64,000 bases of DNA from an uncultured Gammaproteobacteria bacterium (GCA_964345045.1 CAYFPM010000001.1:108215-172214); one strand, 5' to 3'. Counted from the stretch's first letter, positions 3,136 through 62,451 are shown. Made by a program: numbers and translations. The notes: generated by a model not told the origin, from the letters alone.

Positions 3136-3214
3136 CGAGTTGTGTGTTCTGTCACTTCTCGGCAGAGGTTCTCCTTTCTTTGCGTCGGTTCTGAGCGGGG
3201 GCGTCAGCTTCCGA

Positions 3215-4245: not shown

Positions 4246-4249
4246 TATT

Positions 4250-5329: not shown

Positions 5330-5335
5330 TTAATA

Positions 5336-7674: not shown

Positions 7675-10600
7675 ATGTTTTCCAAACGTCTGGCTATCTT
7701 GGCCATTATAGGGGGTTTGGGGGGAGCGTTGCTAGGTTTTCAAGAATTAGCAAATGGTTTCACATTGGATTCTGGCAATACAGATCAAGTGAATCTTAAT
7801 ACCTTAAAATTTGATTCTGGCAAAAGTTCGGATATAACTGTTAACAGTCTTTTTTTGTTGGATAATTCGGAAAATGAAAAAGAAGATGAAAAATCTACTT
7901 TTGATACCAAAACAGAAGAAAAAGATGTAAGTAATTTTAGTATATTAAATTTTAATCAAAAATCTACAGAAACAGTTACTGCCACAGTAGATGTAAGTGA
8001 AAATTTTGCAAAAACAGAAGTGACAGATATTAATATTTTGGAACAAAAAAAAGAAGATGAAAAACAAGATCAAGATGAGGGTAGAGAGGATAGTTTGCTT
8101 ATAAAAACTACTCCAATTACTATTACCCCAATAAAGGTGGAGCCGGTGGAGCCTATAAAAAATATTGATGAGGATACCAAACAAAATGAACTACCAAAAA
8201 AAGAAGATCCAAAGGTAATTTCTGAACAGATTGAGACTAAGATTTCTGAGGAGGAAAAACCTGCCGATGCCACAGGCTCTGGCGCTGTGAAAGAAGAGAA
8301 AAAAAGTATTTTTAATATTTTTTCTCCAAAGGTAGACAAGGTTGATATTGAAGTAGAGTCCAAAAAAGATGCTAAAAAAGTAGAAGTAAAAACTTTGCCA
8401 GAAATAAAAGATACTCGTTTGCAAGTTGATTTTGAAATAGAAAAAAAAGAAGATGGATCTGTAAAAGTGGAAGGCTCTAAAGTAAGAACAAATTTGGAAA
8501 TTGCTATTGATAGTAAAGTAAAAGAATCTAACAAAGAAGATGCCCCAAAAGAAGAACAAGTTAAACCAAAAATACTTTCTCCAATCAAACCAACTCTTAT
8601 CAAAACCAAACAAGATCTTGGAACATATGCTGGAGATATTGCTGCTCGTGACACAGATGTAGAATCTGTAGAAATTGAAGAAGACACAGTAGAAGTGTCT
8701 TACAAAAAACCGGCCCGACTCTTTGGTATTTTCCCAACCAAAATAAAGGAAGACGTGGTTGTAAAAACAGATTCATTGGGTCGACCTGATGTAGAAGTAA
8801 AACGTCCTTGGTGGGCTATTTTCACTAGTGAAAAAGATAGTAAAGAAGAAGTAGCCGAAGATATAGAAAAGAGAGTTGGTTACACAGGTACAGGTGCTAG
8901 CAGCCAAGAATCTTCTGTAAGACTAGCTGGAATTCTTGGAGCCATTGATCGTACTATGAAGATTGGTAGTGACAAAGCTACTGGAATTGATGTGGTCTCT
9001 AGTGTAGAAGAAGGTTTGCCAGATAGAGATGACGTGCCAGAAGAAGGTGTACTTGTAAGTGATTTAGATGTCATGATGCGTCAAGCTTTCTTGGGGGACT
9101 TGTTTAATCGTCCTGGTTCTGGAAGCTCGGCTCATATTTTTATCGATCTGGCTATAGAAGGAACTTTTGGTAATTTTGCTTCGCAACAATTAAGTATTGC
9201 CAGCCGCACAGCCGGGGACAGTGGCGAATTTATTGTCGCTGGTATTGGCAGAGTATTGACCATGTTCAACGAAAGAGGACTTAGCCACCAGCATGATGCC
9301 TTCTTGCGTTCAGCTCTAGTACTAGAAGTCGCTAGAGCTATGAATGGAGACGCAGCTGCCGCAGCCTTTGTAAATCAGTATGCTAGTCAAATGAATAATT
9401 TATTGGCAAACAGTGGTGTGCCACTGACAACTTCTGCCAATGGAAATAGAACTTTGGTAAATTTTGCTGTTTGTTCTGGTGCCAATAGAGCTGGTTGTGT
9501 CGATGTCGCTACTCTACTTAGTTCACTTGGTGATCCTCGCTCACTTTCCAATTTGTGTGATCCAGGTAACATGGTGTTGAACGGAATTATGAATTTGGCT
9601 GGAGACGAAAGATATGGATGTGCTCCACCAACCGGAATGTGTGCTACTACCTTGGAAGGTGGTATTAACAATGGAGAAAACGTAGCTCCAGGATTACCAG
9701 GAATACAGCAACCAGAAAATGCCTTGGGACAATCGGATGTTCCAAATGGGGCACAAGGATTTTTGGAAGACCAAGGTATTACCGGTCAAGATTTGGAAAC
9801 CATCTGTGGAGCTCATGCTGCCGGAGCGCTGGGACTAGGCGGTGGAACACAAGAGTGTATAGAAAATGCAATTTCACAAATGGCCAGACAAGATCTGCTT
9901 GGTGCTGCTGGTATGGCTGGTTGTATGGCCGGAGCCCTAGGTCTAGAGCTAGGAGATGACCCAGCCATCGATAGAGTGATTGATGATGCCCTTAACAGTC
10001 GTGGTTGTGGAGACCTAGCCGCCGATGGAGAAAAGAAAGAAACTCCTCCAAAGGAAGAGAAAAAACCAGATCCTTCGAAAGAAACTGAGGAAAAAACTCC
10101 ACCACCAAAAGATAAAGAAGAACCAAAGAAAGAAGAAAAAGGATTTTTTGGTAAATTGTGGGATGCTGTTTTTGGTGGAGGTAATGATAAAAAACCAGGA
10201 GTAGAATTCCAATATGACAAAGAAGGAAAGTTAATTGGTGCAGAATCTGGAAATACAATAGTAAGACTTAATGAAGACGGTGAAGCAATAGTGGAAATAG
10301 GTGGTCAAAATGTAACTGTCGAAGGAAGCCAAAATGAATTGGAAGCTATATTAGACGCCATCGGAGGTGTTTATGATGGAGAAGGTGTAGGAAACATTGT
10401 AGATTATGATTCTACTGGAGAAATATACATTGGAGCACAAAGAGCCCTATTGAAGTTTAAAAATATTAGAGGTTCTTCGTTAGAGCCAAGCTCTGGTTGT
10501 AGCGAAGCTTTGCAAGCTCTAGAAGCAGCCTACACCCAATGTTCTGGCGACATTATAAACAATGCTGCTGCCGGAGCTGGTGTCCCAGGAGGTTCTCCTG

Positions 10601-11133
10601 CCGAAAGAATCGGACGAACTGCTCCAGGATCTAATCCTTTTGGTGGTAGACCAGGCGAGTATGGTGGCACTGCCGGAGCTACAGATCCAATCACTGCGTG
10701 TATGGAAGCCAATAGTTCTAGAACTCATGGTTCTGGTAACTGGGCCTCCAATGGAGGAGCTTGTGGCTTTATGGTTTGTGCCGATGGTACAGATAGTTGT
10801 TGTCAGGGAGCTGGTTTTGGCAATCAAGCAGCCGGAGAATTGCTTCGTGATTTACGAGATTGTACCGAAGTAATGTGTGTCCCAGGTGAGCCATGTCTTT
10901 GTGCTGGTGAACAAAGTACCGGAGAGTTACCAGAGATACCTATTTTTGGAGATGACGGTGGAGTAAATCCTGTAGCCAACGACAGTATTGCCCCAAACGA
11001 AGGTAGTTCGGCCAGAGGATTTTCTGAAACAGTTGGTAACACCAACTTTACAGGTTCTGTAGGAACTGGCTTTGGTGTGGGTTCTGGATCAAATCCAAGC
11101 CAGGAGCTAGACGGTGATGTAAATAGTAGATAA
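7675..11133 (+). CDS. Very large (1152 aa) predicted surface protein: N-terminal TM/signal, long K/E-rich low-complexity region, Gly/Cys-rich C-terminal region
   Basis: MFSKRLAILAIIGGLGGALLGF hydrophobic N-terminus. About 300 aa of KE-rich repeats. C-terminal half is rich in G, C, A and N with many CxxG/C patterns. Confidence 0.6.
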   Translation: MFSKRLAILAIIGGLGGALLGFQELANGFTLDSGNTDQVNLNTLKFDSGKSSDITVNSLFLLDNSENEKEDEKSTFDTKTEEKDVSNFSILNFNQKSTETVTATVDVSENFAKTEVTDINILEQKKEDEKQDQDEGREDSLLIKTTPITITPIKVEPVEPIKNIDEDTKQNELPKKEDPKVISEQIETKISEEEKPADATGSGAVKEEKKSIFNIFSPKVDKVDIEVESKKDAKKVEVKTLPEIKDTRLQVDFEIEKKEDGSVKVEGSKVRTNLEIAIDSKVKESNKEDAPKEEQVKPKILSPIKPTLIKTKQDLGTYAGDIAARDTDVESVEIEEDTVEVSYKKPARLFGIFPTKIKEDVVVKTDSLGRPDVEVKRPWWAIFTSEKDSKEEVAEDIEKRVGYTGTGASSQESSVRLAGILGAIDRTMKIGSDKATGIDVVSSVEEGLPDRDDVPEEGVLVSDLDVMMRQAFLGDLFNRPGSGSSAHIFIDLAIEGTFGNFASQQLSIASRTAGDSGEFIVAGIGRVLTMFNERGLSHQHDAFLRSALVLEVARAMNGDAAAAAFVNQYASQMNNLLANSGVPLTTSANGNRTLVNFAVCSGANRAGCVDVATLLSSLGDPRSLSNLCDPGNMVLNGIMNLAGDERYGCAPPTGMCATTLEGGINNGENVAPGLPGIQQPENALGQSDVPNGAQGFLEDQGITGQDLETICGAHAAGALGLGGGTQECIENAISQMARQDLLGAAGMAGCMAGALGLELGDDPAIDRVIDDALNSRGCGDLAADGEKKETPPKEEKKPDPSKETEEKTPPPKDKEEPKKEEKGFFGKLWDAVFGGGNDKKPGVEFQYDKEGKLIGAESGNTIVRLNEDGEAIVEIGGQNVTVEGSQNELEAILDAIGGVYDGEGVGNIVDYDSTGEIYIGAQRALLKFKNIRGSSLEPSSGCSEALQALEAAYTQCSGDIINNAAAGAGVPGGSPAERIGRTAPGSNPFGGRPGEYGGTAGATDPITACMEANSSRTHGSGNWASNGGACGFMVCADGTDSCCQGAGFGNQAAGELLRDLRDCTEVMCVPGEPCLCAGEQSTGELPEIPIFGDDGGVNPVANDSIAPNEGSSARGFSETVGNTNFTGSVGTGFGVGSGSNPSQELDGDVNSR

Positions 11134-16328: not shown

Positions 16329-17822
16329 TTCATTGAGAGTTTGATCCTGGCTCAGGATGAACGTTGGCGGCGTGTCTAAGGCATGCAAGTCGAGCGACGG
16401 ACCCACTTCGGTGGGGGACCGAGCGGCAAACGGGTGAGTAACACATTGGTAACCTACCTCCGAGACGAGAATAGCTCATCGAAAGATGAATTAATACTCG
16501 ATAGTCATGAGGGGACGAAAGTCATTCTCATGTAAACCTCCGGGGCTCGGAGAGGGGCCTATGTCTGATTAGCTTGTTGGTAGGGTAAAAGCCTACCAAG
16601 GCGATGATCAGTAGCAGGCGTGAGAGCGTGACCTGCCTCACTGGGACTGAGACACTGCCCAGACTCCTACGGGAGGCTGCAGTCAAGAATATTCCGCAAT
16701 GGACGAAAGTCTGACGGAGCGACGCCGCGTGCAGGAAGACGCCCTTCGGGGTGTAAACTGCTTTTATTAGGGAAGAATTTGTGACGGTACCTAATGAATA
16801 AGAGGTTGCTAACTCTGTGCCAGCAGCAGCGGTAATACAGAGACCTCAAACGTTATCCGGATTTATTGGGCGTAAAGCGTCCGCAGGTTGTTTGGGAAGT
16901 CAGCGGTCAAATCTTCGGGCTTAACTCGAAGACTGCTACTGATACTCCCAGACTAGAGGCTGGAAGAGGCAAGCGGAATTTTCGGTGTAGTCGTAATAAG
17001 CGCTGATATCGAAAAGAACACCAAAGGCGAAGGCAGCTTGCTGGTACATGCCTGACACTCATGGACGAAAGCGTGGGTAGCGAATGGGATTAGATACCCC
17101 AGTAGTCCACGCCCTAAACGATGTCTACTAGGTATTGGAAGTATCGACCCTTTCAGTGCCGTTTAAAAAAGCTAACGCGTTAAGTAGACCGCCTGTGTAG
17201 TACGGCCGCAAGGCTAAAACATAAAGGAATAGACGGGGACCCGCACAAGCGGTGGATCATGCGGTTTAATTCGATGATACGCGGCGAACCTCACCCAGAC
17301 TTGACATGTAACTGCAAGCTCCTAGAAATAGGAGCCGCCTTCGAGGGTGTTACACAGGTGCTGCATGGTTGCCGTCAGCTCGTGCCGTGAGGTGTACCCT
17401 TAAGTGGGGTAACGAGCGCAACCCTCGTCTTGTGTTACATTGTACACAAGAGACTGCCCGGGCAACCGGGAGGAAGGTGAGGACGACGTCAAATCAGCAT
17501 GGCTCTTACGCCTTGGGCGACACACATGATACAATGGCCAGTACAACAGGTTGCCAACCCGCGAGGGGGAGCTAATCCTATAAAGCTGGTCTCAGTTCGG
17601 ATTGCAGGCTGCAACTCGCCTGCATGAAGTTGGAATCGCTAGTAAACGCGCATCAGCCACGGCGCGTTGAATACGTTCTCGGGTCTTGTACTCACCGCCC
17701 GTCACACCACGAAAGCTGGGGGCACCCGAAGGCTCTTTACGGGGACGAAGGTGAAACCAGTGATCAGGGTGAAGTCGTAACAAGGCATCCGTAGCGGAAG
17801 CTGTGGATGGATCACCTCCTTT
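16329..17822 (+). rRNA. rrs: 16S ribosomal RNA (complete, solitary)
   Basis: 5' AGAGTTTGATCCTGGCTCAG. Internal universal blocks GTGCCAGCAGCAGCGGTAATAC and GGATTAGATACCC. 3' end GGATCACCTCCTTT. No 23S follows. Confidence 0.95.
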
Positions 17823-21557: not shown

Positions 21558-22394
21558 ATGCGTGATACTATGAAATACATATTAGGAAAAAAATTAGGCA
21601 TGACTCAAGTTTTTAAGGACGACGGTACTGTTGTTCCTGTAACCAGAGTTCAAGCCGGACCATGTGTTGTAACACAGGTAAAAACAAAAGAAAAAGACGG
21701 AGTAAATTCTGTACAGTTAGGTTTTGGTGTACAAAAATCTTTTAGATTGAACAAGCCACAACAAGGACATTTGAAAGGTCTTACTTCTGTAAAAATCATG
21801 AGAGAAGTTCGTATGAATGATGATCATGGTTTGAAAAGAGGCGATACTTTTACTGCCGAAACTTTTAAAGCCGGTGAAAAAGTTCAAGTTGTTGGTTGGT
21901 CAAAAGGTAGAGGATTCCAAGGTGTAGTAAAACGTCATGGCTTTGGTGGTTCTCCTGCCAGTCATGGTCACAAAGACCAATTGCGTATGCCTGGTTCTAT
22001 TGGTGCTACCGACGCAGCCAGAGTTTTCAAAGGTACTCGCATGGGTGGTCACATGGGTGACAACAGAGTAACTGTAAAGAATTTGGAAATTGTAGAAATA
22101 AATCCAGCAGAAAACGAAATTCTTATCAAAGGTGCTGTTCCTGGAGCTAGAGGTGGTTTCCTTATTGTAGCTAATTCCGAAGGTAATATTGAAATCGTAG
22201 AAGATAAGAAAACAGAAGAAAAAGTAGAAGAGGTTAAAAATGAAGAAGTTGTAGAAACTAAAACAGAAAATACAGAAGAAAAAAAACCCGTCGACGCCGA
22301 AGGCTCTGACGTGGTGAAAGAAGAGGCTCCTGCAGAAACCAAAGAAGAATCTGTAGAAGCAGCTGAAGATAAAAAAGATGAAGAATCTAAATAA
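21558..22394 (+). CDS. rplC: 50S ribosomal protein L3 with about 70-aa K/E-rich C-terminal extension (alternative start 21570)
   Basis: KYILGKKLGMTQVF...VVGWSKGRGFQGVVKRHGF. The extension ends ...KKPVDAEGSDVVKEEAPAETKEE... Confidence 0.9.
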   Translation: MRDTMKYILGKKLGMTQVFKDDGTVVPVTRVQAGPCVVTQVKTKEKDGVNSVQLGFGVQKSFRLNKPQQGHLKGLTSVKIMREVRMNDDHGLKRGDTFTAETFKAGEKVQVVGWSKGRGFQGVVKRHGFGGSPASHGHKDQLRMPGSIGATDAARVFKGTRMGGHMGDNRVTVKNLEIVEINPAENEILIKGAVPGARGGFLIVANSEGNIEIVEDKKTEEKVEEVKNEEVVETKTENTEEKKPVDAEGSDVVKEEAPAETKEESVEAAEDKKDEESK

Positions 22395-22396
22395 AT

Positions 22397-23026
22397 ATGG
22401 CCAAAGTTGATTTGTACAATTTGGAAGGTAAAGTAAGTGGTAGCATTGATTTGAATGATGCAATATTTGCTGTACCTGTAAAAGAAGATGTAGTACACCA
22501 AGTATACTTGGCTCAAATGGCTAATGCCAGACAACCATGGGCTCACAGCAAAGACAAAAGTGAAGTTCGTGGTGGTGGTAAAAAACCATGGAGACAAAAA
22601 GGTACTGGTCGTGCTCGTCATGGTTCTATCCGCTCTCCACTTTGGAAAGGCGGTGGTGTGACTTTTGGTCCTTTGAATACCAGAAATTACAAACAAAAAA
22701 TTAACAAAAAAGCTAATAAAAACGCTGTACGCATGTGTTTGTCAGCCAAAGCTGCCGATGGTAAATTGATTATTTTAGATAGTTTGACTACCGATGGTAA
22801 AACAAAAGGAATGGCCAAATTGCGTGCTATGTTGCCAGGTTTTGGTAAAACAACCATTATGCTTTCTGGCAAAGCAGACGAATCATTGAACAGAGCTACC
22901 AGAAATATACCAAGATTAGATTTGCAAAGAGCTCTAGATGTAAACGTGGTAGACTTACTTCATCACCAATACATAATTATTTCCAAAGAAGGGATAGAAG
23001 TATTGGAAAAAAGATTGAATAAATAA
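22397..23026 (+). CDS. rplD: 50S ribosomal protein L4
   Basis: SKDKSEVRGGGKKPWRQKGTGRARHGSIRSPLWKGGGVTFGP. Confidence 0.9.
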   Translation: MAKVDLYNLEGKVSGSIDLNDAIFAVPVKEDVVHQVYLAQMANARQPWAHSKDKSEVRGGGKKPWRQKGTGRARHGSIRSPLWKGGGVTFGPLNTRNYKQKINKKANKNAVRMCLSAKAADGKLIILDSLTTDGKTKGMAKLRAMLPGFGKTTIMLSGKADESLNRATRNIPRLDLQRALDVNVVDLLHHQYIIISKEGIEVLEKRLNK

Positions 23027-23027
23027 T

Positions 23028-23489
23028 ATGGGAATATTGGATAAACTAAAAAAGAAAGATGAAGAAAATGTAGAAGAAGCAAAAACTGCTACTGTTAAGG
23101 CTGCTCCAAAAAAGAACGCTACATCCTCCGACGCAAAAAGCTCTGGCGTGACAAAAGAAAAGAAAGTAGAAGAGAGTAAAGAAGTTAAATCTGTAGCGAC
23201 AAAAGTAATAACTGATACTGTTTTGGTTAAACCATTCATTAGTGAAAAAGCTGTAATGCAAGAAGCCAAAGGAATTTATACTTTTGTAGTAAAAAATAAG
23301 GCAACAAAAGTAGATGTAAAAAAGGCAGTAAAAGCAGTTTATGGAGTAATCCCAGCTAAAGTAAGAATGTTGAACATGGAAGGTAAAAGAACCTCTTTTG
23401 GTATCCGCAGAGGCAAGAGATCTGATTGGAAAAAAGCAGTTGTAACTTTGCCAAAAGGTAAGACTATAAGTATTCACGAAGGCGTATAA
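23028..23489 (+). CDS. rplW: 50S ribosomal protein L23 with about 55-aa K/E-rich N-terminal extension
   Basis: The core [11 protein letters not shown]...[14 protein letters not shown] matches L23. The N-terminal extension contains ...[16 protein letters not shown]... Confidence 0.9.
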
Positions 23490-23499
23490 TTATAAAGGT

Positions 23500-24348
23500 A
23501 TGGCAGTAAAAGTATACAAACCAACCACACCAGGAAGACGCAAAGCTAGTGTCCAAGATTTTTCTAATATCACAAAAACCAAACCAGAAAAATCTTTGAC
23601 AAAAAGACTAAACAGAAAATCTGGTAGAAATAACCAAGGTAAAATTACTGTTCGTCACAGAGGTGGTGGAGCCAAAAAATTATACAGAATGGTTGATTTC
23701 AAAAGAACTGTAAACAAAGATGTTGTTGCCGAAGTTTTGGCTATTGAATACGATCCAAATCGTGGTCCTAGGGTGGCTCTTATCAAATACGAAAATGGTA
23801 CCAAGTCTTATGTCTTGGCTCCAGAAGGTTTGAAAGTAGGAGACAAAGTAATGTCTTCTAGCAAAAAGGTAGAAGCCAAGATAGGAAACCGCATGCCACT
23901 ACAACATATCCCAGTAGGTTTGTTTGTATATAATATCGAACTAAATCCTGGAGACGGTGGTAAAATGGCCAGAGGTGCTGGTAATGGGGCTCAGCTTCAA
24001 GTAATTGAAGGTGGTATCGCTCAATTAAAATTACCTTCTGGTGAAGTAAGACAAGTAAAAAAAGAATGTGCTGCTACTGTTGGTAAGGTAGGTAATGCTG
24101 ATTATCAATTGGTAAGACTTGGTAAGGCTGGTAGAAAAAGACATATGGGATGGAAGCCAACTGTAAAAGGTAAGAACATGAACCCAGTTGATCACCCTCA
24201 TGGGGGTGGTGAAGGTCACTCTCCAATTGGTTTGAAGAAAGGACCTAAGACCAAATGGGGTAAATTGGCTATGGGTGTTAAAACTCGTGAAAAAGGTAAA
24301 TGGAGTGATAAATTTATAGTTCAAAGAAGAAAAAAGAAAAAAAGATAA
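23500..24348 (+). CDS. rplB: 50S ribosomal protein L2
   Basis: ...[22 protein letters not shown]...[24 protein letters not shown]. Confidence 0.95.
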
Positions 24349-24351
24349 ATT

Positions 24352-24458
24352 ACTAGTTCATAGCCAATAGTTCTTAGTTCATAAGTTGTAAGTATCTAGA
24401 AGATAAACAAATATGAAATAAAGACTATTGGCCGTGAACCAAGAACGATTAACTAAAA
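24352..24458. repeat. Palindromic intergenic element, family copy 2 (AGTTCATAGCCAATAGTTCTTAGTTCAT ... ATTGGCCGTGAACCAAGAACGATTAACT)
   Basis: Inverted-repeat arms. Same family as 5336-5427. Confidence 0.75.
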
Positions 24459-24460
24459 TT

Positions 24461-24748
24461 ATGTCAAGAAGTCTTAAAAAAGGGCCTTATATAGACCCAA
24501 AACTAGCCAAGAAAGTACAAAAGGCTAAAGATGCCAACGACAAGAAGCCTATTAAAACTTGGGCTCGTGCATCTACTATTACACCGGAAATGGTGGGAAT
24601 GACTTTTTTGGTACACAATGGTAGAGATTTCTTGAGTGTGTTTGTAGATGAGAACATGGTTGGCCACAAGCTGGGAGAATTTTCTCCAACTAGAAAATTT
24701 GTTCGCCATGGTGGTAAGATGCAAAAAGAACAAGAAAAAGGTAAATAA
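24461..24748 (+). CDS. rpsS: 30S ribosomal protein S19
   Basis: [15 protein letters not shown]...[11 protein letters not shown]...[13 protein letters not shown]. The start was chosen after the palindromic element. Confidence 0.9.
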
Positions 24749-24750
24749 AT

Positions 24751-25296
24751 ATGAATAAAACATTAGATACAACTGCACACCTAAGAAAACTAAGAATGAG
24801 CCCAAGAAAGGTACGCTTGATTGTTGATCTTGTTCGTGGTATGAATGCCAAAGAAGCTGTATTGCAACTTCAGTTTTCTAAAAAACATGCGGCTAGACCA
24901 GTAAAAAAATTGATCGAATCTGCTATTGCCAATGCTAAACACAATCATAATGTTTTGGAAAATACCTTGGTAGTAAAAACAGCTTTTGTAAATGAAGGAC
25001 AAACTTTAAAACGTTGGATGCCAAGAGCTATGGGTAGAGCCACTCCACTTCGCAAAAGAATGTCTCATGTAACTATAGTATTGTCTGGAGAAGTAGATGA
25101 AAAAGCAGCCAAGCAAGAAAATAATGAACCAAAAAAGCAAGAAAGTAAAACAGAAAAAGTAGAAACTAAAGATTCTGAAAAAAAAGAAACTAAAAAAACA
25201 ACAGCAAAAAAAACAACTAAAAAAGTAGAGAAATCAAAGAAACCCGCCTCCGCTAAAAGCTCCGGCGTGGTGAAAGAAAGTAAGAAAAAAGCATAG
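24751..25296 (+). CDS. rplV: 50S ribosomal protein L22 with about 65-aa K/E-rich C-terminal extension
   Basis: The AHLRKLRMSPRKVRLIVDLVRGM core matches L22. The tail ends ...KPASAKSSGVVKESKKKA. Confidence 0.9.
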   Translation: MNKTLDTTAHLRKLRMSPRKVRLIVDLVRGMNAKEAVLQLQFSKKHAARPVKKLIESAIANAKHNHNVLENTLVVKTAFVNEGQTLKRWMPRAMGRATPLRKRMSHVTIVLSGEVDEKAAKQENNEPKKQESKTEKVETKDSEKKETKKTTAKKTTKKVEKSKKPASAKSSGVVKESKKKA

Positions 25297-25329
25297 AAAT
25301 TATTTATTAGAAATTAGGAATTAATATAT

Positions 25330-26025
25330 ATGGGTCATAAAGTCCATCCAAAAATTCATCGCACTCAGGTAATTTATACTTGGGATTCTCGCTGGTTCAA
25401 AAAAAGAAACTACGCCGAGTATGCTGAACAGGATATCAAAATCCGTGAATTTTTGATGAAAAAATTTAAAGACGCCCATATTGATGCTATTGGTATAGAA
25501 CGTGGTCCAAAAAATATGACCATTACTATAATGGCTGCCAAACCAGGATTTATCATTGGTCGTGGCGGTGAAGGACTAGATTCTTTGAGAAAACACGTTG
25601 AAAGAAAATTTTTGAAAATGAAACTAAAAGTAAAATTAAATATCAAAGAGGTTCGTTCTCCTGCTTTGTCTGCTGCTGTTGTAGCTCAAACTATGGCCTC
25701 TGATATTGAAAGACGTATCCCGTTTAGAAGAGTAATGAAACAATCTATTGAACGTGTAAGGAAAGCTGGGGCTCAAGGTGTAAAAGTATCTATGGCAGGA
25801 CGCCTAAACGGAGTTGATATTGCTAGAACCGAAACTTTGTCAGCTGGAAAAGTTCCATTGATTACTTTGAGAAGTGATGTAGATTTTTACAAACATTACG
25901 CTATCACTACTTATGGTAAGATAGGTATTAAAGTTTGGATTTACAAAGGTGAAGTATTTGGTAGAAAAGAAACTGTCTCCGAAATTGCTGATGCTGAACC
26001 AAAATCTAAACAAAAAAGAAAATAA
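25330..26025 (+). CDS. rpsC: 30S ribosomal protein S3
   Basis: MGHKVHPKIHRTQVIY... with KH and S3-C domains. Confidence 0.95.
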   Translation: MGHKVHPKIHRTQVIYTWDSRWFKKRNYAEYAEQDIKIREFLMKKFKDAHIDAIGIERGPKNMTITIMAAKPGFIIGRGGEGLDSLRKHVERKFLKMKLKVKLNIKEVRSPALSAAVVAQTMASDIERRIPFRRVMKQSIERVRKAGAQGVKVSMAGRLNGVDIARTETLSAGKVPLITLRSDVDFYKHYAITTYGKIGIKVWIYKGEVFGRKETVSEIADAEPKSKQKRK

Positions 26026-26031
26026 CTTTGT

Positions 26032-26445
26032 ATGTTGTTGCCAAAAAAAGTAAAACACAGAAAGTGGCATAAGCCACGTAGAGCCAACAAAGGTGTAGCT
26101 ACCCGCATAAACACTGTAGCTTTTGGTACTTATGGTCTAAAATCTACTACTCATGCTTGGGTTAGCTCTCGTCAAATTGAAGCTGCTCGTCGTGTGCTTA
26201 CCAGATATGTAAAACGTGGTGGTAAAATTTGGATTAGACTTTTCCCAGATAGACCTGTAACTAAAAAAGGTAATGAATTGCCTATGGGGGGAGGAAAAGG
26301 TTCTCCAGAATTCTACGTATGTACTGTAAAACCAGGAACTGTAATGTTTGAGATGGAAGGTATTCCAGAAGAAAAAGCTATGGAAGCTTTGAAATTGGCT
26401 AGCTACAAATTGCCACTTAAGACAAAGATTGTTACCAAAAAATAA
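26032..26445 (+). CDS. rplP: 50S ribosomal protein L16
   Basis: [16 protein letters not shown]...[11 protein letters not shown]. Confidence 0.95.
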
Positions 26446-26448
26446 TAT

Positions 26449-26649
26449 ATGGATTTTACTGAAATTAAAAACAAATCAGAAAAAGAACTTCATGACTTGC
26501 TAAATGAAAAACGATCAGAGTTGAGAGAACTTGAATTTAAAGTTAGTGAAAGACAGCTAAAAAATGTCCGTTCTATAAGAGACACCAAAAAGGTGATAGC
26601 ACGTATTTTGACTGCTATTAAAGCAATAACCAATAAACAAAACCAATAA
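26449..26649 (+). CDS. rpmC: 50S ribosomal protein L29
   Basis: 66-aa helical protein in the conserved position. KSEKELHDLLNEKRSELRELEFK. Confidence 0.85.
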   Translation: MDFTEIKNKSEKELHDLLNEKRSELRELEFKVSERQLKNVRSIRDTKKVIARILTAIKAITNKQNQ

Positions 26650-26654
26650 TTAGT

Positions 26655-26933
26655 ATGGCAGAAAAAACTGTAGAAAATTCAAAAAAAGTTATTAACCGTG
26701 AATTTGATGGTGTGGTTGTTGGTGCCAAAGCAGACAAAACTATTAGTGTTTTGGTAAAAACTGTAAAAGTGCATTCTAAATACAAAAAACAATATACTGT
26801 TAGTAAAAAGTACGCTGTACACGATGAAAAAGGACAAGCCAAAGTAGGAGATATTGTAAAGTTTGCAGAATGTCGTCCAATTAGCAAAACCAAAAAATGG
26901 AGATTGGTTAGTGTAGTAAAAACTAGCGCTTAA
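26655..26933 (+). CDS. rpsQ: 30S ribosomal protein S17
   Basis: GVVVGAKADKTISVLV...YKKQYTVSKKYAVHDE...GDIVKFAECRPISKTKKW. Confidence 0.9.
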   Translation: MAEKTVENSKKVINREFDGVVVGAKADKTISVLVKTVKVHSKYKKQYTVSKKYAVHDEKGQAKVGDIVKFAECRPISKTKKWRLVSVVKTSA

Positions 26934-26945
26934 TTATCGTTTTGT

Positions 26946-27317
26946 ATGATTCAACATAGAACAATCTTGAAAGTAGCAGACAATACAGGTGCCAAGAAGC
27001 TTATGTGTATTCGTGTTCTTGGTGGTTACAAAAAACGATATGCTCAAATTGGAGATGTTATTACTTGTACTGTAAAAGAAGCTGCTCCTCGTGGTATGGT
27101 AAAAAAGAGTGAGATCGTACACGCTGTGATTGTAAGACAACGTAAGGAAAAACGTCGTAAAGATGGAACTTATATCCGTTTTGATGAGAATTCTGCTGTA
27201 GTAATTGATAAAAAAACCAAAGAACCAAAAGGTACTCGTATCTTTGGCCCCATTGCCAGAGAACTACGTGGTAAAGGTTATCAAAAAATTGTATCATTAG
27301 CCCCAGAAGTTCTGTAG
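26946..27317 (+). CDS. rplN: 50S ribosomal protein L14
   Basis: [27 protein letters not shown]. Confidence 0.95.
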
Positions 27318-27415
27318 TAGTTCATAGCCAATAGTTCTTAGTTCATAGTGTGTAAGTAAAATATCTATGAAACAAAGACTATTGGCTACGAACCAAGAAC
27401 GATGAACTAATTATA
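27318..27415. repeat. Palindromic intergenic element, family copy 3
   Basis: TAGTTCATAGCCAATAGTTCTTAGTTCATAG...GACTATTGGCTACGAACCAAGAACGATGAACT. Confidence 0.75.
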
Positions 27416-27417
27416 TT

Positions 27418-27738
27418 ATGAAAATTAAAACTGGTGACAATGTAAAAGTTATATCTGGAAAAGACCGTGGTAAAACTGGTAAAGTTATTCAGGTATTAAC
27501 AGATAAAAAAACAAAACAAACTTTTGTGGTAGTTGAAGGTGTAAATATGAGAAAAAAACACCTAAGAACTAATCAAGCAGATCAAAAAGGTCAAATTATA
27601 GAATTGTCTGCTCCGATGAACGCCAGTAATGTAATGCTAATTGATCCAAAATCAAAAAAGTCTACTAGAGTTGGTTTTAAAATAGAAGGTAAGGATAAAA
27701 AAAGAGTCGCCAAAAAAAGTGGTGAATACATAGAATAA
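27418..27738 (+). CDS. rplX: 50S ribosomal protein L24
   Basis: MKIKTGDNVKVISGKDRGKTGKV (KOW motif). Confidence 0.9.
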   Translation: MKIKTGDNVKVISGKDRGKTGKVIQVLTDKKTKQTFVVVEGVNMRKKHLRTNQADQKGQIIELSAPMNASNVMLIDPKSKKSTRVGFKIEGKDKKRVAKKSGEYIE

Positions 27739-27740
27739 TT

Positions 27741-28286
27741 ATGGAACCTGTACTATACACACAATATAAAAAAGAAGTTGTTCCTGCTCTAAAGGAAGAG
27801 TTTGGATACAAAAACATAATGCAAGTCCCTAAAATCAAAAAGGTGATTGTTAATGTTGGTTATGGAAGACATGTAAAAGATAAATCTTATATAGATAAAG
27901 TAGAAAATACTTTGGCTACTATTACTGGGCAAAAACCTGTTCATAACAAAGCTCGTAAATCTATCTCTAACTTTAAGATTAGAGCCGGTATGCCAATTGG
28001 AGCCTCTGTTACCTTGCGTGGTAAGTCAATGTATGATTTCCTATATAGATTAAATCACTTGGCATTGCCTCGTGTAAGAGATTTTCGTGGTATTAGTAAA
28101 AAAGGTTTTGATAAACAAGGTAACTATACTTTGGGTCTAAAAGAACAAATTGCTTTCCCAGAGTTGGGTGCAGAAACGGCTGACTTTGTACATGGTATGG
28201 AAATTACTGTAGTAACTAGCGCAAATAGCAAAAAAGAAGGTGAATCTTTATTGAGTAAGTTAGGTTTTCCGTTTAAAGCAAAATAA
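27741..28286 (+). CDS. rplE: 50S ribosomal protein L5
   Basis: ...VPKIKKVIVNVG...RGMPIGASVTLRG...YDFLYRL. Confidence 0.95.
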   Translation: MEPVLYTQYKKEVVPALKEEFGYKNIMQVPKIKKVIVNVGYGRHVKDKSYIDKVENTLATITGQKPVHNKARKSISNFKIRAGMPIGASVTLRGKSMYDFLYRLNHLALPRVRDFRGISKKGFDKQGNYTLGLKEQIAFPELGAETADFVHGMEITVVTSANSKKEGESLLSKLGFPFKAK

Positions 28287-28292
28287 GTATAT

Positions 28293-28478
28293 ATGGCAAC
28301 AAAAGCACAAATAGCAAAATCAAATAAAAAACCAAAGTTTAGCACTAGAACTGTTAGACGTTGTTGGAAGTGTGGTCGTAAACGTGGTTTTATGAGAAAA
28401 TTTGGTTTGTGCAGAATTTGTTTTAGAGAATTGGCAAACGATGGAAAATTGCCAGGTGTACGTAAATCAAGTTGGTAA
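28293..28478 (+). CDS. rpsZ: 30S ribosomal protein S14 type Z (zinc-binding)
   Basis: 61 aa with [20 protein letters not shown]. Confidence 0.9.
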
Positions 28479-28521
28479 ATTTATAAAATAAATATAAGAA
28501 TATTTTCATCAAGTTAAGATT

Positions 28522-28911
28522 ATGATGACAGATCCAATAGCAGACATGTTAACTCGCATCAGAAATGCCCAGCAAATAAGAAAAGCTGAGGTTGATGTAC
28601 CATACTCAAAACTAAAACTAAAATTATTAGAAATTCTTAGTGCTGAAAGTTATATTTCTGGTTTTGAAAAAGTTGGTGACAATCACCCATTATTGCGTGT
28701 TAAACTAAAATACGAAGGCAAAGAATCTGCCATTCGCTCTATTAAACGTGAAAGTAAACCAGGTCATAGAGTGTATTGTAAAGCAGGTGAGATGCCAAGA
28801 ATTTTGAATGATTACGGTATTGCTGTTGTTTCTACTTCTAAAGGTCTTATGACTAATAAAGAAGCTAGAAAGCAAGGCATAGGTGGAGAAATTATTTGTT
28901 CAATATATTAA
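28522..28911 (+). CDS. rpsH: 30S ribosomal protein S8
   Basis: TDPIADMLTRIRNA... Confidence 0.95.
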   Translation: MMTDPIADMLTRIRNAQQIRKAEVDVPYSKLKLKLLEILSAESYISGFEKVGDNHPLLRVKLKYEGKESAIRSIKRESKPGHRVYCKAGEMPRILNDYGIAVVSTSKGLMTNKEARKQGIGGEIICSIY

Positions 28912-28984
28912 TGGTTCATGGCCAATCGTCCATTGCCATTAATATTTGACGATTGGCGATTGGCTATGAACTAAGAACTACTTT
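28912..28984. repeat. Palindromic intergenic element, family copy 4 (shorter variant)
   Basis: GGTTCATGGCCAATCGTCCATTGCC...ACGATTGGCGATTGGCTATGAACTAAGAACT. Confidence 0.65.
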
Positions 28985-28986
28985 TT

Positions 28987-29532
28987 ATGTCAAGAATAGG
29001 TAAACAAATTATAGAAATCCCAAATGGAGTCACTGTAACAGTAGCAGATGGCAAAGTTGTGGTACGCGGATCAAAGGGAGAATTATCTAGACCAATACAC
29101 AGTTTAGTATCTGTAACTGTAGCCGACAATCAAGTTACTGTAGATGTAAAGAATAAAGAAGTAAAAGAAGAAAGATCTTTGTGGGGAACTTTTTCATCTC
29201 ACATAAAGAATATGGTAGTAGGTGTAACTGAAGGATTCAAAAAACAATTAGAAGTAAACGGAGTAGGTTACCGTGTAAGCATGCAAGGTACTGACCTTAA
29301 ATTAGAAGTAGGATATTCTCATCCGGTAATTTACAAAGTAGCTCCAGAAGTAAAAGCTTCTGTAGAAAAAAATGTAATTACTTTGGAAAGTGCTGACAAA
29401 GAACTTTTGGGTAGAGTAGCTTCTGAAGTAAGAGCTGTACGTAAACCAGAACCGTATAAAGGTAAAGGTATCAAGTATATGGACGAAGTAATTCGTCGCA
29501 AGGCTGGTAAATCTGCCAAAGCCGCTGCTTAA
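28987..29532 (+). CDS. rplF: 50S ribosomal protein L6
   Basis: MSRIGKQIIEIPNGVTV... two-domain L6. Confidence 0.95.
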   Translation: MSRIGKQIIEIPNGVTVTVADGKVVVRGSKGELSRPIHSLVSVTVADNQVTVDVKNKEVKEERSLWGTFSSHIKNMVVGVTEGFKKQLEVNGVGYRVSMQGTDLKLEVGYSHPVIYKVAPEVKASVEKNVITLESADKELLGRVASEVRAVRKPEPYKGKGIKYMDEVIRRKAGKSAKAAA

Positions 29533-29541
29533 TAAAAAAAT

Positions 29542-29910
29542 ATGAAGAAATTAAGTAAATTACAACAAAGACAACGAAGACACAATAGAGTTCGTGCTGT
29601 TGTTTCTGGTACAGCGGATCGCCCTAGATTGCACGTACACCGTAGTTTGACTGGTATGTATGTACAGCTTATTGACGATGCTTCTAGCAAAACTTTGCTT
29701 AGTGTAAATAGCAAAAAAGATGCCACCAAAGGTGATGCGGGAGAAAGAAAAGGTAAAGTTGCTGTAGCTTATATATTAGGAAAAATTTTGGCAGAAAAGG
29801 CTAAAGAACAAAATATTACCAAAGTAGTTTTTGATAGATCTGGACACAGATACATGGGACGTGTACAAGCTGTAGCCGATGGTGCTCGTGATGGTGGTTT
29901 GCAGTTTTAA
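29542..29910 (+). CDS. rplR: 50S ribosomal protein L18
   Basis: ...RPRLHVHRSLTGMYVQLIDD... Confidence 0.9.
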   Translation: MKKLSKLQQRQRRHNRVRAVVSGTADRPRLHVHRSLTGMYVQLIDDASSKTLLSVNSKKDATKGDAGERKGKVAVAYILGKILAEKAKEQNITKVVFDRSGHRYMGRVQAVADGARDGGLQF

Positions 29911-29950
29911 TTAAATAATATATAGTTTAGAATCAAACGTATAAATACAT

Positions 29951-30547
29951 ATGGCACAAAAACCCGGTAGAGGCAGAGGCAAGCCTAGACAAAAAAGAGA
30001 AAAACCAGAATTTGACCAACAAATTATTGATTTGGCTCGTGTAACTCGTGTTACCAAAGGTGGTAAACAAATGAGTTTTAGAGCTACTGTTGTAATTGGT
30101 GATAGAAAAGGTAGAGTTGGTCATGGTACAGAAAAAGGAAAAGATGTACAGATCGCTGTAGAAAAAGCCGTAAACCAAGCCAAGAAAAATCTTATCAGAG
30201 TGCCAATTGTAAAAGAAACTATTCCACATAGAATTGAGAAAAAATACAAAGCTGGTAGAGTAATGATTAAACCAGCTCCAAAAGGTTCTGGTATTATTGC
30301 TGGTAGTGCTTTGCGTGTAGTTCTAGAATTAGCAGGTGTCCCAAATGCTTCTGGAAAAGTTATGGGCAAGACCAATAACAAAGTAACTAACGTAAAAGCA
30401 GCAGTAGAAGCTTTGAAAACTTTTAAATCTGTAAAGAAAACAGATAAAAATAAACCGGTTCCTACCAAAAAGAAAGTAGCTACCAAAGCTAAAGCAAAAA
30501 CCGCCTCTGTCAAAAAAGACTCCGGCGTAGTGAAAGAAGAAAAATAA
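29951..30547 (+). CDS. rpsE: 30S ribosomal protein S5 with K-rich C-terminal extension
   Basis: ...RVTRVTKGGKQMSFRATVVIGD.... The tail ends ...KTASVKKDSGVVKEEK. Confidence 0.95.
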   Translation: MAQKPGRGRGKPRQKREKPEFDQQIIDLARVTRVTKGGKQMSFRATVVIGDRKGRVGHGTEKGKDVQIAVEKAVNQAKKNLIRVPIVKETIPHRIEKKYKAGRVMIKPAPKGSGIIAGSALRVVLELAGVPNASGKVMGKTNNKVTNVKAAVEALKTFKSVKKTDKNKPVPTKKKVATKAKAKTASVKKDSGVVKEEK

Positions 30548-32484: not shown

Positions 32485-33456
32485 CTAAGCGCCACGGAAA
32501 GGACATTCTTCCAAACGTAGTTCCTTGATCACAGACTCTGGGGGGCAATATCGAAGTGGCTGGTTGAACCAGCGCTTCTCTTGGCTTCCTTCTTCTAGAC
32601 AGAAACCGCCGCATTCAGAGGTTTCCTCCTCGAAGTATTCAATGGCTCGTTCCACTACGCTACCTTTGTCACCAATAATCTGCTTGAGATCTTCAGCGAG
32701 GCCGACAGCGGCCTTGGTTCGCTTCTCTTGGTTTTGGGCTAGGCGCCGGTTGGCTTCTTCCACGTCCAGGCTTTCCGGAACCTCTAGCTGCTCAACTTGG
32801 CTTAGCCTGAGCGAAAACCACATTCGACCTAGCTGGACGATATCCAGTTGATCATTACTCTGACGTAGTGCATCTTCGATAACCGGGATCGCTCCGCGGA
32901 TACCCAGGATCATCAGAGCAATTCGTGCTTGGTTCTTTGTGGCTAGATCGATTCGGTTGTTGATGAGAGCGTCGTGGACGACGCGGCGAGCCACAACTTG
33001 CCAGGCAAGTCCGCAAAATACGGCGTCATACTCCTTGAATTCATCGAATCCATGCAGGTTGAGCGCTTCCGATGCCTCTACAAGCATGGAGTAAGCATGC
33101 TGTCGCTGTCCGATCTGGTTGGCGGCGAGCAGGTTGGCCGCGGCGCAGGCCAGCGAGGCTCCCTGCCCGGTTGCGAAGCCGGTCCAGGTGCTGGGCCACT
33201 TGGTGCAGACACGGGGTTCAACCTGGAGACCCCTGATCTTGTTGTCGGTGTTGATGGGGTCGTCTTTGGCTAGAAGAGACGGGGTGATGTGTAGTGCACA
33301 TCTGTTTTCGTGTCGTGGGGTCATCGTGTCCGCGATGGGATTCTGCAGAAGAGGTTCCTTTTGGACGGGGGTGTTGGTAGATGTTTCGTGACACCCACTA
33401 GTTATGGTAGCGAACAGGACGAGGATGTTGACGATTGCCGAGTTGCTTTTCAGCAT
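32485..33456 (-). CDS. GC-rich (about 58%) putative lipoprotein inserted between secY and adk
   Basis: Signal peptide with lipobox (ITSGC). GAAAGGA RBS. Codon usage and GC clearly differ from neighbours. C-terminal Cys-containing tail. Confidence 0.55.
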   Translation of the reverse strand: MLKSNSAIVNILVLFATITSGCHETSTNTPVQKEPLLQNPIADTMTPRHENRCALHITPSLLAKDDPINTDNKIRGLQVEPRVCTKWPSTWTGFATGQGASLACAAANLLAANQIGQRQHAYSMLVEASEALNLHGFDEFKEYDAVFCGLAWQVVARRVVHDALINNRIDLATKNQARIALMILGIRGAIPVIEDALRQSNDQLDIVQLGRMWFSLRLSQVEQLEVPESLDVEEANRRLAQNQEKRTKAAVGLAEDLKQIIGDKGSVVERAIEYFEEETSECGGFCLEEGSQEKRWFNQPLRYCPPESVIKELRLEECPFRGA

Positions 33457-36891: not shown

Positions 36892-37911
36892 CTATTTGTG
36901 GAATACCACACCCTCTGAGCCGAGGGAGAAGACGATTCCTCGTCCACTCTCTACCATGGCCATATAGCATCTCTGATTGGCCTTGAGCTTGTCGCTGCAA
37001 TAACTCGCGGTCACTTGACCTAGGTGGTAGAGCTGCTCCTCGCCAAAGGCGCGCAGAGGCTGGTGGTTGTAGGTCGCGTAGGCCAGGTTCCGGCGCTCGC
37101 CGTTGACCGGACGGATGTAGAACCCAAGCTGTACGGTAGGGTCTGCCATCATTTGACCCAAGAGCTTGCGTTCACTACGGTTCAGCCTAGCGGCTCGAGA
37201 CCTCAGGACTAGTTCTGTTGCGATCTTTTCCAGCAGATCCCAGCGAGCGTGGGCCATCTTCTCGAGTGCCTCCAAGGCCTTTTGTGATCCATCCTTGTAG
37301 GGGGTCTCTACCTTGAAGGTGATGACTCGGAGATCTCCGTTGAACATCCTGTTGAAGTAGGCCAATAGGACCTCGACCTGGGGCTCGGTGCGAGTCGCCC
37401 TGTACACTGGAGCCAGGAGACCTGTTCTCTCCATGGGGCCAGCGATAGTGACTTCGAATTGGTTTAACCCGACATGCCGGATGCCCTGAACGTGCCACTG
37501 GTGCAGCTTGGGTTTGCCTGCATCTCGTGCAGCTGCCAGGCGTTGCATCTCAGCTTGGGCGTGCTGAAAGTGGTGGCGCCAGGCCTGCTCAGCATCCTCC
37601 ATCTTTGCAAAGGGTGCCTTGAAGGTGATGCCCTGGAGATCTTCGAACCTATCGACACCGTGAAACGGCATGATCGTGAGGTTGAAGTAGCTCCTACAGA
37701 TCAGAGCAGGCGCTCTTGGGTCGGTGACTGGCTTGATCAAGAGACATTGGCTAAGCCGTGCCCCTCTGTAGTTCGGGGTGTAGCTGGTGGTGTGGATCAC
37801 CTTCCAGGTGTGAAGCTTGGGCGGCTTTTTGGCCTCGGCTTCTGGGGTGGTCAGCAGGTTGAAGACAGCCGCCACAACCAGAATCAAAAGAGCGGTTAGA
37901 GTTCGACGCAT
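36892..37911 (-). CDS. GC-rich secreted hypothetical protein with internal tandem duplication
   Basis: The start was chosen at MRRTL.. (signal peptide) with GGGAGG RBS. Two homologous halves (KPPKLHTWKV...FKAPFAKMEDAEQAWRHHFQ and KPKLHQWHVQ...FKVETPYKDGSQKALEALEK). About 58% GC. Confidence 0.6.
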   Translation of the reverse strand: MRRTLTALLILVVAAVFNLLTTPEAEAKKPPKLHTWKVIHTTSYTPNYRGARLSQCLLIKPVTDPRAPALICRSYFNLTIMPFHGVDRFEDLQGITFKAPFAKMEDAEQAWRHHFQHAQAEMQRLAAARDAGKPKLHQWHVQGIRHVGLNQFEVTIAGPMERTGLLAPVYRATRTEPQVEVLLAYFNRMFNGDLRVITFKVETPYKDGSQKALEALEKMAHARWDLLEKIATELVLRSRAARLNRSERKLLGQMMADPTVQLGFYIRPVNGERRNLAYATYNHQPLRAFGEEQLYHLGQVTASYCSDKLKANQRCYMAMVESGRGIVFSLGSEGVVFHK

Positions 37912-62260: not shown

Positions 62261-62269
62261 CAATGTAAA

Positions 62270-62451
62270 AATTATTTATCTAGGTTCTGCCCCTTTGGGG
62301 CATCCGCCTGAGGCGGAGATTCCTAGCGAGAGCACAGAAAAACGCCCATTGTGGCGTTTTTTGTTTTGTTAGAGATTCTCACCCTTCGGGTGATCCGCCG
62401 AAGGCGGGTTGGTGGGGGCACAAATTTAACCAGCCAATTTGGCTGGTTTTT
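62270..62451 (+). repeat. Degenerate tRNA-Arg-derived segment: CTAGGTTC and TGGTGGGGGCACA (62410-62422) repeats, two CCGCC...GGCGG hairpins and two terminator-like hairpins
   Basis: 13-nt identity with the tRNA-Arg 3' end. AAAAACGCCCATTGTGGCGTTTTTT and AACCAGCCAATTTGGCTGGTTTTT. Confidence 0.6.

Follow-up and report, generated by a model that had tools for sequence, protein, structure and literature searches.

A peptide motif shared by four ribosomal proteins of a Patescibacteria genome is probably the in-frame translation of a GC-rich hairpin repeat

In a 64,000-nt stretch of DNA (GCA_964345045.1 CAYFPM010000001.1:108215-172214; hereafter the window, meaning the whole stretch) derived from a Candidate Phyla Radiation (CPR)/Patescibacteria genome assembled from a metagenome, the ribosomal proteins L3, L23, L22 and S5 carry lysine- and glutamate-rich (K/E-rich) terminal extensions that share an SGVVKEE-like motif. 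This locus raises the question of whether the motif is a feature of the ribosome surface, used for docking or modification, or the product of a short repeat inserted in-frame, the two origins considered in an earlier note on this DNA. That note had quoted one motif-bearing peptide from each protein, all of which we find in the proteins to which it had assigned them, and a conserved DNA patch, which is also real but measures approximately 43 nt instead of 30 and exists in five copies instead of four, the fifth lying in a non-ribosomal gene. We consider it likely that the motif is the in-frame translation of a ~30-43-nt GC-rich stem-loop repeat, of the kind represented by repetitive extragenic palindromic sequences (REPs), GC clusters or Rickettsia palindromic elements (RPEs), residing in disordered K/E-rich tails. 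The five copies and the non-ribosomal host gene are:

22280..22322, + strand (hairpin 22286-22315): copy in the L3 C-terminal tail, encoding the peptide KKPVDAEGSDVVKE, which includes AEGSDVVKEE
23117..23159, + strand (hairpin 23123-23152): copy in the L23 N-terminal extension, the most degenerate of the five, with a weak hairpin
25236..25278, + strand (hairpin 25242-25271): copy in the L22 C-terminal tail, encoding the peptide KKPASAKSSGVVKE, with the quoted motif AKSSGVVKESKK
30494..30538, + strand (hairpin 30499-30531): copy in the S5 C-terminal tail, encoding the peptide KTASVKKDSGVVKE, which includes KKDSGVVKEEK
8253..8295, + strand (hairpin 8259-8288): fifth copy, in a K/E-rich low-complexity region of orf7675, encoding the peptide EKPADATGSGAVKE, with the motif EKPADATGSGAVKEEK
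7675..11133, + strand: orf7675, in which the fifth copy lies; its 1152-aa product has a hydrophobic N-terminal segment and two K/E-rich regions

These copies are homologous at the DNA level. The GC-rich patch, 43-45 nt in length, is intragenic in all five cases and lies each time in a different gene, and a search with the 20-mer GCTCYGRCGTGGTGAAAGAA allowing up to three mismatches returned five matches against 0.00 expected from 100 shuffles. A de novo repeat search of the window independently recovered the family (D3; five copies, 43 nt), an nhmmer profile matched the five copies with E values of 1e-9 to 5e-12 (next match in the window, E>2), and a covariance model scored them at 58-65 bits, compared to 18 bits for the next-best window match. 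At the protein level, S[GD]V[VT]KE occurs at only four sites in the six-frame translation of the window, those of L3, L23, L22 and S5; orf7675 matched no Pfam family. Once a 3-nt loop gap is allowed for S5, whose loop has one AAA codon more than the others, the five copies line up codon by codon and yield the consensus AAA CCC GCC GAC GCC AAA GGC TCT GGC GTG GTG AAA GAA and the consensus peptide K-P-A-D-A-K-G-S-G-V-V-K-E. Pairwise divergence among the copies is 22-43%, and their similarity ends at the patch edges. The patches are identical across contigs assembled from four separate sequencing runs, indicating that they are not assembly artefacts.

The extensions that host the ribosomal copies are:

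22197..22391, + strand: L3 K/E-rich C-terminal extension, about aa 214-278
23028..23219, + strand: L23 K/E-rich N-terminal extension, aa 1-64
25087..25293, + strand: L22 K/E-rich C-terminal extension, aa 113-181
30446..30544, + strand: S5 K-rich C-terminal extension, aa 166-198

The patches fall outside the Pfam domains of these proteins (residues 65-148 in L23, 9-112 in L22 and 21-165 in S5), and the L23 extension is probably translated, given that its N-terminus, MG(I/L)LDK, is conserved in relatives. Extensions at the same ends of the four proteins (C-terminal in L3, L22 and S5, N-terminal in L23) are found throughout the clade: the best 120 L22 homologues are all 127-223 aa long, against the 104 positions of the Pfam domain. 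Enlarged L22 and L23 (N-terminal region) have been reported in CPR bacteria (Tsurumaki et al., bioRxiv 10.1101/2022.01.07.475337), and the K/E-rich tails seen here are the same phenomenon; that work describes neither a shared motif nor an embedded hairpin repeat. The motif itself is not general, a related peptide being present in only 6 of the 120 L22 tails. Within the window, every large K/E-rich region (orf7675, L3, L23, L22 and S5) has exactly one copy, ribosomal or not, so that the association is with K/E-coding DNA or disordered tails, and not demonstrably with ribosomal proteins as such. The tails also resemble each other through low-complexity similarity, recovered as a separate repeat family (D4).

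Codon usage sets the patches apart from the tails around them. Against a background of 5,474 codons with a GC content at third positions (GC3) of 25.6%, the patches show GC3 at 34 of 65 codons (52%), where approximately 12 (~19%) would be expected from the encoded peptides (per-copy p from 0.0004 to 0.1), and they are the only GC-rich part of host tails whose remainder has a GC3 of 8-19%. They make repeated use of CCC, GGC, GTG and TCC, codons that account for 1%, 8%, 8% and 5%, respectively, of their amino acids in the background.

What the five copies conserve is a common two-stem hairpin in the sense strand. Its outer CGCC/GGCG stem, which ACC/GGU can extend across a bulge, is separated by 3-nt internal loops from an inner stem of 3 bp with an A-rich loop, and a conserved unpaired tail, GTGAAAGAA, follows the hairpin. 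In the five-copy alignment 88% of cells are paired, no shuffle of 500 matches either the pairing or the covariation score, and sliding the 3' partner by one to three columns lowers pairing to 26-44%. The stem is maintained through compensatory changes, which are two-sided at four pairs. In the inner stem these correspond to Ala(GCU)..Ser(AGC) in L22, Ala(GCC)..Gly(GGC) in L3 and orf7675, and Val(GUC)..Asp(GAC) in S5; in the outer stem, to Ala(GCC)..Gly(GGC) versus Val(GUC)..Asp(GAC) in L3. These paired changes are non-synonymous, and read as protein the correlated amino acid changes make no sense for a peptide motif. When synonymous codons were resampled at the genome's own usage, the folds of the L3 copy (minimum free energy -13.2 kcal/mol; p=0.0005) and the L22 copy (p=0.009) proved stronger than those of the controls. 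The frame shared by the copies is likewise uninformative about peptide function: a TGA interrupts frame 2 in every one of the five, and frame 3 is closed in two and would be rich in Arg, Cys and Trp in the others. Searches against Rfam, both at the gathering score and at E<=10, found no family at the patches or at the canonical copies described below. Two other functional readings of the patch were discarded. An internal Shine-Dalgarno-like role for GGTGA or AAGGA was dropped, as these genes have no upstream Shine-Dalgarno sequence and K/E coding is purine-rich in any case; a DNA-uptake sequence, Chi or a KOPS-like (FtsK orienting polar sequence) polar motif was rejected, as the unit is too long, too rare and shows structural covariation.

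A related element is present in other CPR genomes. A scan of genome contigs for L22 yielded nine relatives, and because the relatives' loci were all fetched around L22, the apparent restriction of copies to L3, L22 and S5 in them is biased by sampling. Four genomes carry what we refer to as the generic element:

L006: GCA_018646705.1
L064: JGI Ga0136261_1000164, 49.5% GC
L065: GCA_002322575.1, 34% GC
L070: GCA_002869205.1

Over these four genomes we identified 14 copies, in L3, L22 and S5 tails, with one to three per tail where present, compared to the single copies of the window tails. Their consensus, AAAGAA TCC GCC TCC GCT AAA GCT TCN GCG GAC AAG GAA GAA, reads KE-SASAKASADKEE and defines the "SASAKATADK" element of Magasanikbacteria-like genomes, which retains GCG and AAG codons that are rare in AT-rich genomes. 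A profile of the generic copies matches the window L22 patch (nhmmer, E=7e-4), and the covariance model of the window copies ranks the generic copies next after the window's own five. Among the window copies, that of L22 is the nearest to the generic TCCGCC..GGCGGA element: GCCTCCGCTAAAAGCTCCGGCG of window L22 and GCCTCCGCTGAA-GCTCCGGCA of L006 L3 are one indel and three substitutions apart. As a result of this indel, the 3' arm is translated in different frames in the two genomes (SSGV versus APAD), which is direct evidence that the homologous entity is a DNA or RNA hairpin.

The generic family also shows conserved pairing. In its outer register, formed between the first TCCGC(C) unit and the GCGGA arm, the proportion of paired cells is 87% and drops to 21-48% when the register is slid; its covariation score is 0.315, against 0.18 in shuffles, none of which (0/500) reaches the observed value, and double changes are found in seven cells (9/500). 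The paired changes include synonymous TCA..GCT (L065 L22), TCA..GTT (L065 S5) and CUGCC..GGCAG (L006 L3), and eight G.U cells favour the sense strand. An inner-register pairing was also considered and set aside, since covariation is confined to the outer register.

The distribution of the element is patchy. The motif is missing from L007-L013, and the genomes that bear it do not form a monophyletic group in a tree of concatenated ribosomal proteins. Sister genomes differ by discrete units of ~30 nt, which have been gained or lost as such. L065 and L009 are sisters with 84% amino acid identity, and L009 lacks any copy; the two are separated by clean indels of 33 nt at the L22 C-terminus and of 30 nt at the S5 C-terminus, the latter between the conserved flanks AAAAAAGAA and GAA(T/A)AATAA, as well as by a ~66-nt block within the S5 tail, part of which, TCCGCC-CAA-GGCGGA, is a perfect hairpin, and by an L3 end that is 40 nt longer. 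Across genomes, L3 copies occupy differing positions in the tail. In the S5 tail of L065 (15670-15760), TCCGCCCAAGGCGGA is followed by a second, longer GC hairpin, with the encoded peptide SAQGGSALLGTPGAVDG. The L3 tail of L010 (7655-7699) contains different GC hairpins in tandem, CAGCC-AGA-GGCTG and CCAGCC-TGC-GGCTGG.

The element is present in unrelated genes and in unrelated taxa. Two scans of viral contigs (IMG/VR, L071-L100) revealed a canonical hairpin of ~30 nt, TCCGCC-(T/G)NCGCT(A/G)AAGCT(A/T)(C/T)-GGCGGA (TCCGCC-N14-GGCGGA), in approximately 20 contigs of 34-71% GC with unrelated flanks, frequently followed by CAAG and with a loop sequence that is conserved across these contigs. Some copies are in-frame, as after the Lipase_3 domain of a 287-aa open reading frame (ORF) in L079 (8811-8836) and at approximately residue 515 of a 3061-aa ORF in L099 (4150-4175), and some have stops in the SAFAK frame; the other frames read PPSLKLRRT or SYGGQ. 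L095 contains an inverted pair of canonical hairpins (6501-6564), and a further example of the hairpin is found in L076 (198-223). From these comparisons, the window copies can be read as a lineage-specific variant of the widespread TCCGCC-(T/C)NCGCT(A/G)AAGCTNN(N)-GGCGGA-CAAG, one that has gained a single nucleotide in the loop and acquired a new 3' tail. A scan of JGI metagenomes with the window-type 19-mer CTCYGRCGTRGTGAAAGAA gave 48 single matches, in unrelated and mostly GC-rich contexts; as they do not include the upstream half, we attribute them to chance and regard the window variant as lineage-specific. A protein search with a 64-aa concatenated motif query produced no match at E<=10, and no paper in the literature library searched contains the sequence of the element or the encoded peptides; the element family appears to be undescribed.

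Taken together, these data favour the second origin considered in the earlier note, a short repeat inserted in-frame, on the grounds of the copy in a non-ribosomal gene, absence from most orthologues, codon bias, covariation, frame change, clean indels and the occurrence of the same ~30-nt hairpin in unrelated contigs. Under this interpretation, the copies would have spread or been homogenised among K/E-coding tracts through some trans-acting enzyme or, alternatively, through microhomology-mediated template switching or gene conversion between AAAGAA-rich flanks. Copies would then persist only where the one universally stop-free sense frame gives a harmless hydrophilic peptide within a disordered tail, and the peptide KP-A-[DS]-A-K-[GS]-S-G-V-V-K-E may be a by-product. 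Any role for the host would be that of the transcribed hairpin, which might act in the long mRNA of the ribosomal proteins as a barrier or as a mark for processing. We judge it unlikely that the transcribed hairpin acts for the host, and keep such a role under consideration because pairing is maintained in diverged copies, because of the G.U pairs and because of the sense-only orientation.

Several observations weigh against a translated, spreading repeat. Among the 34 window ORFs scanned with Pfam there is no transposase or gene resembling a REP-associated tyrosine transposase (RAYT), and no target-site duplication is recognisable in the AAAGAA-rich low-complexity flanks. Copy number is low, at five in the ~81 kb examined; a further ~17 kb of contig beyond the window adds no copies. 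The copies in orf7675, S5 (p about 0.16) and L23 fold no better than their synonymous controls, and the hairpin structure was derived from the same sequences used to test it. That pairing is kept at 22-43% divergence could reflect selection in place, and not descent from active masters. Furthermore, all 19 CPR copies examined are sense-oriented and in-frame, and L3, L22 and S5 bear copies in five deeply separated lineages, which, in a sample centred on L22, may point to a gene-tied function.

Some of these points are shared with the proposal that the hairpins are exapted cis-acting RNA elements, serving as signals in the polycistronic mRNA of the S10-spc operon (RNase processing sites, barriers to 3'-exonucleases or sites bound by a regulatory protein). 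It would account for stem covariation with sense-strand G.U pairs, for pairing that survives such divergence and for the sense orientation of every copy; a single, highly expressed operon contains four of the five copies, three of which are close to the 3' end of a gene, AT-rich hairpins are also found in four spacers of that operon, and REPs are thought to act in this manner (PMC3733652). We nevertheless think this improbable, given that the element is missing in most relatives, including a sister genome at 84% identity, that copy number per tail (one to three) and position vary, that it also resides in an unrelated gene and in unrelated taxa, that it has no Rfam match and no terminator-like U-run after it, and that the next start codon follows at no consistent distance (11, 52 and 75 nt). 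A broader version, to which we would assign a slightly smaller chance still, holds that the canonical hairpin is an undescribed cross-phylum element, recognised by a conserved trans-acting mobilising enzyme or RNA-binding protein and exapted as a cis-acting signal in the ribosomal-protein mRNAs of Magasanikbacteria-like genomes; this would explain both why five deep lineages carry it in their L3, L22 and S5 tails and why pairing is kept despite divergence.

The remaining explanations dispense with mobility or with the hairpin altogether. An old, vertically inherited tail module could have undergone concerted evolution, with gene conversion homogenising its copies and slippage losing them in some lineages. 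The use of the same three proteins in five lineages, the position of copies in the outgroup L006 at the C-terminal positions of L065, the derived features common to copies within one genome and the similarity between tails (D4) all fit this scenario, but it is at odds with a copy in a non-homologous gene 14 kb away, with canonical copies in contigs of 34-71% GC with unrelated flanks, with a similarity that halts at the patch edges and with the differing position of L3 copies between genomes, and we hold it to be quite improbable. More doubtful still, and very unlikely, is a short linear peptide motif under protein-level selection, that is, the docking or Ser-modification site on the ribosome surface envisaged by the earlier note. 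The copies do share frame, orientation and similar peptides, and in other genomes L3, L22 and S5 contain related peptides, but the shared frame is forced, the codons are rare and GC-rich, the amino acids covary like base pairs with synonymous paired changes also on record, the frame differs between genomes, most orthologues lack the motif, sister genomes differ in it, and one bearer, orf7675, is not a ribosomal protein and has a hydrophobic segment at its N-terminus. Compositional coincidence in K/E-rich low-complexity sequence, which the earlier note had named as the outcome contrary to its proposal, could appeal to flanks that are low in complexity and alike in composition (D4); with five copies against none expected from shuffles, patches that are the sole GC-rich part of their tails and profile scores at least 30 bits over background, its chances are negligible.

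The translated hairpin repeat that we favour has partial counterparts among known elements. GTAG- and CGTC-tagged REPs include some that lie wholly inside ORFs, at termini or flexible linkers, and lengthen the protein by several residues (Di Nocera et al. 2013, PMC3733652). REPs are 20-40-nt imperfect palindromes with GC stems and G.T(U) pairs, occur in lineage-specific variants and are likely transcribed, features that the element studied here shares; the window hairpin is an imperfect palindrome within this size range, with 7+3 pairs. No consistent GTAG or CGTC tag is present, GTAG occurring in S5 only and CGTC in L3 only, inside the stem, and the unpaired tail (GTGAAAGAA in window copies, CAAG in the canonical element) is neither. 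REPs are numerous, dispersed and mainly extragenic, whereas all five window copies are intragenic and few for ~81 kb; REP families are also mostly species-specific, whereas the canonical sequence, loop included, is kept across very different GC contents. Lacking the GTAG/CGTC tag, and with no RAYT seen in the window ORFs scanned, the element is not a member of the tagged REP families. RPEs are palindromic repeats inserted in-frame in unrelated protein genes, to which they add a conserved peptide without destroying the protein (PMC10969869), a situation that resembles the five genes and the clean sister-genome indels reported here. RPEs, however, are ~100-150 bp long and known from Rickettsia only, and the 30-45-nt unit found here, encoding ~13 aa in the disordered tails of a CPR bacterium, is by its size not an RPE; similarity to RPE sequences would not be expected either.

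The GC clusters of yeast mitochondria change the size of the product of the ribosomal-protein gene VAR1/rps3 (PMC4464245). As short GC-rich palindromes located in-frame in a ribosomal-protein gene of an AT-rich genome they provide an analogy only, since they are mitochondrial, far more abundant and unrelated in sequence, and the element studied here lies in the tails of bacterial L3, L23, L22 and S5. Palindromic amphipathic repeat coding elements (PARCELs) are likewise coding repeats that have dyad symmetry, are distributed punctately over the phylogeny and are shuffled within genomes, but they form tandem arrays of 25-residue amphipathic units in membrane or surface proteins, in contrast with the single stretches of ~13 hydrophilic residues found here, mostly in ribosomal proteins. 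Not being a tandem amphipathic array, the element is not a PARCEL, even though relatives sometimes have two or three spaced copies per tail.

On the interpretation we favour, an odd motif on four essential ribosomal proteins would be explained as translated repeat DNA, which advises caution in reading such motifs of CPR proteins as surface features. The disordered K/E-rich tails typical of CPR ribosomal proteins would serve as safe harbours for hairpin repeats in genomes where intergenic space is almost nil, and the clean 30-66-nt indels between sister genomes indicate that such repeats add to variation in tail length. The conservation of core and loop over very different genomes is unusual for REP-like repeats. 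If it were true that the hairpins act on the polycistronic mRNA, they would represent a new type of signal embedded in coding sequence.

The ribosomal hosts belong to an S10-spc operon on the + strand (20.8-32.3 kb), in the order L3, L4, L23, L2, S19, L22, S3 ... S5, L15, SecY, with host genes at the following positions:

21558-22394, + strand: L3 gene
23028-23489, + strand: L23 gene
24751-25296, + strand: L22 gene
29951-30547, + strand: S5 gene

The closest relatives of these ribosomal proteins are found in metagenome-assembled genomes of Candidatus Magasanikbacteria and Parcubacteria, with 55-74% identity in the L22 core, and GC content over the whole window is ~37-39%. No L30 gene was found between S5 and L15 in the window; such L30 loss is a CPR hallmark. 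Between 20800 and 31050 the ribosomal-protein genes are preceded by A/T-rich sequence (...aataaat ATG) without a recognisable Shine-Dalgarno motif, and the 3' end of the 16S rRNA still has CACCUCCUU. The 16S rRNA gene (16329-17822) is solitary, with no adjacent 23S gene. Comparison of the window with the ENA contig k127_103776 (PRJEB17505; 116.9 kb) revealed 28 differing positions, all of them within the 16S gene (16696-17649), and this confinement suggests rRNA strain mixing or a chimeric assembly.

The genome also contains several further hairpin-repeat families, some of them in spacers of the same operon. A long AT-rich hairpin family (GTTCATAGCCAATAGT...ACTATTGGCTATGAAC) is found at 5335-5427, 24351-24456, 27315-27417 and 28913-28991, where it occupies the S7|EF-G, L2|S19, L14|L24 and S8|L6 spacers, which measure 6-12 nt in L006; in Rfam these intergenic hairpins obtained sub-threshold microRNA-like matches only. 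Two 96-nt repeats (4249-4344 and 4755-4850; also 1359-1398) with 89% identity immediately precede the S12 and S7 genes; they consist of periodic 9-nt units of the GCCTCTTAA type, which make up a long hairpin. Another, distinct family of GC-rich hairpins, CTCCCCCT-NNN-AGGGGGAG plus GCCCCG..CGGGGC, occurs at 887-967, 40642-40735, 50306-50401 and 54926-54980. Its copy at 40.6-40.7 kb lies inside an RsmB-like gene (40137-41213), after the N-terminal RsmF_N match (residues 11-101) and before the match to the RsmB-F methyltransferase (from residue 208), and by this position is probably another in-frame insertion. A terminator-like palindrome, AATCAAAAAAAGCCTACTTATGTAAGCTTTTTTTGATT, is present in three copies within 1.1 kb (2067-2113, 2499-2545 and 3093-3139).

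Minimal forms of the canonical stem are also present in the window, outside genes:

62304..62407, + strand: pair of minimal hairpins in the intergenic DNA downstream of tRNA-Arg, both with the canonical stem

These hairpins, CCGCC-TGA-GGCGG (62304-62316) and CCGCC-GAA-GGCGG (62395-62407), have the stem type of the generic element, and the inner hairpin GCC-GAA-GGC is common to the L3 copy and to the intergenic minimal hairpins near tRNA-Arg. The 3' end of tRNA-Arg(GCG) (GGTGGGGGCACAA, 62251-62264) is duplicated ~160 nt downstream (62409-62422), with GC hairpins and a terminator-like hairpin between the duplicates, in what looks like a scar of integration at the tRNA.

Three ORFs without Pfam matches, all on the - strand (3215-3934, 32485-33456 and 36892-38025), lie in 2-kb stretches whose GC content is 45-48%, compared to ~37-39% for the genome, and are possibly foreign islands; the first adjoins a GerE/HTH gene, according to the gene calls of the contig. 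The ParA/ParB genes (48552-50251) adjoin a joint flip of gene orientation and GC skew, with the cumulative skew maximum at ~50-52 kb, a flip that may simply track the purine-rich coding strand.

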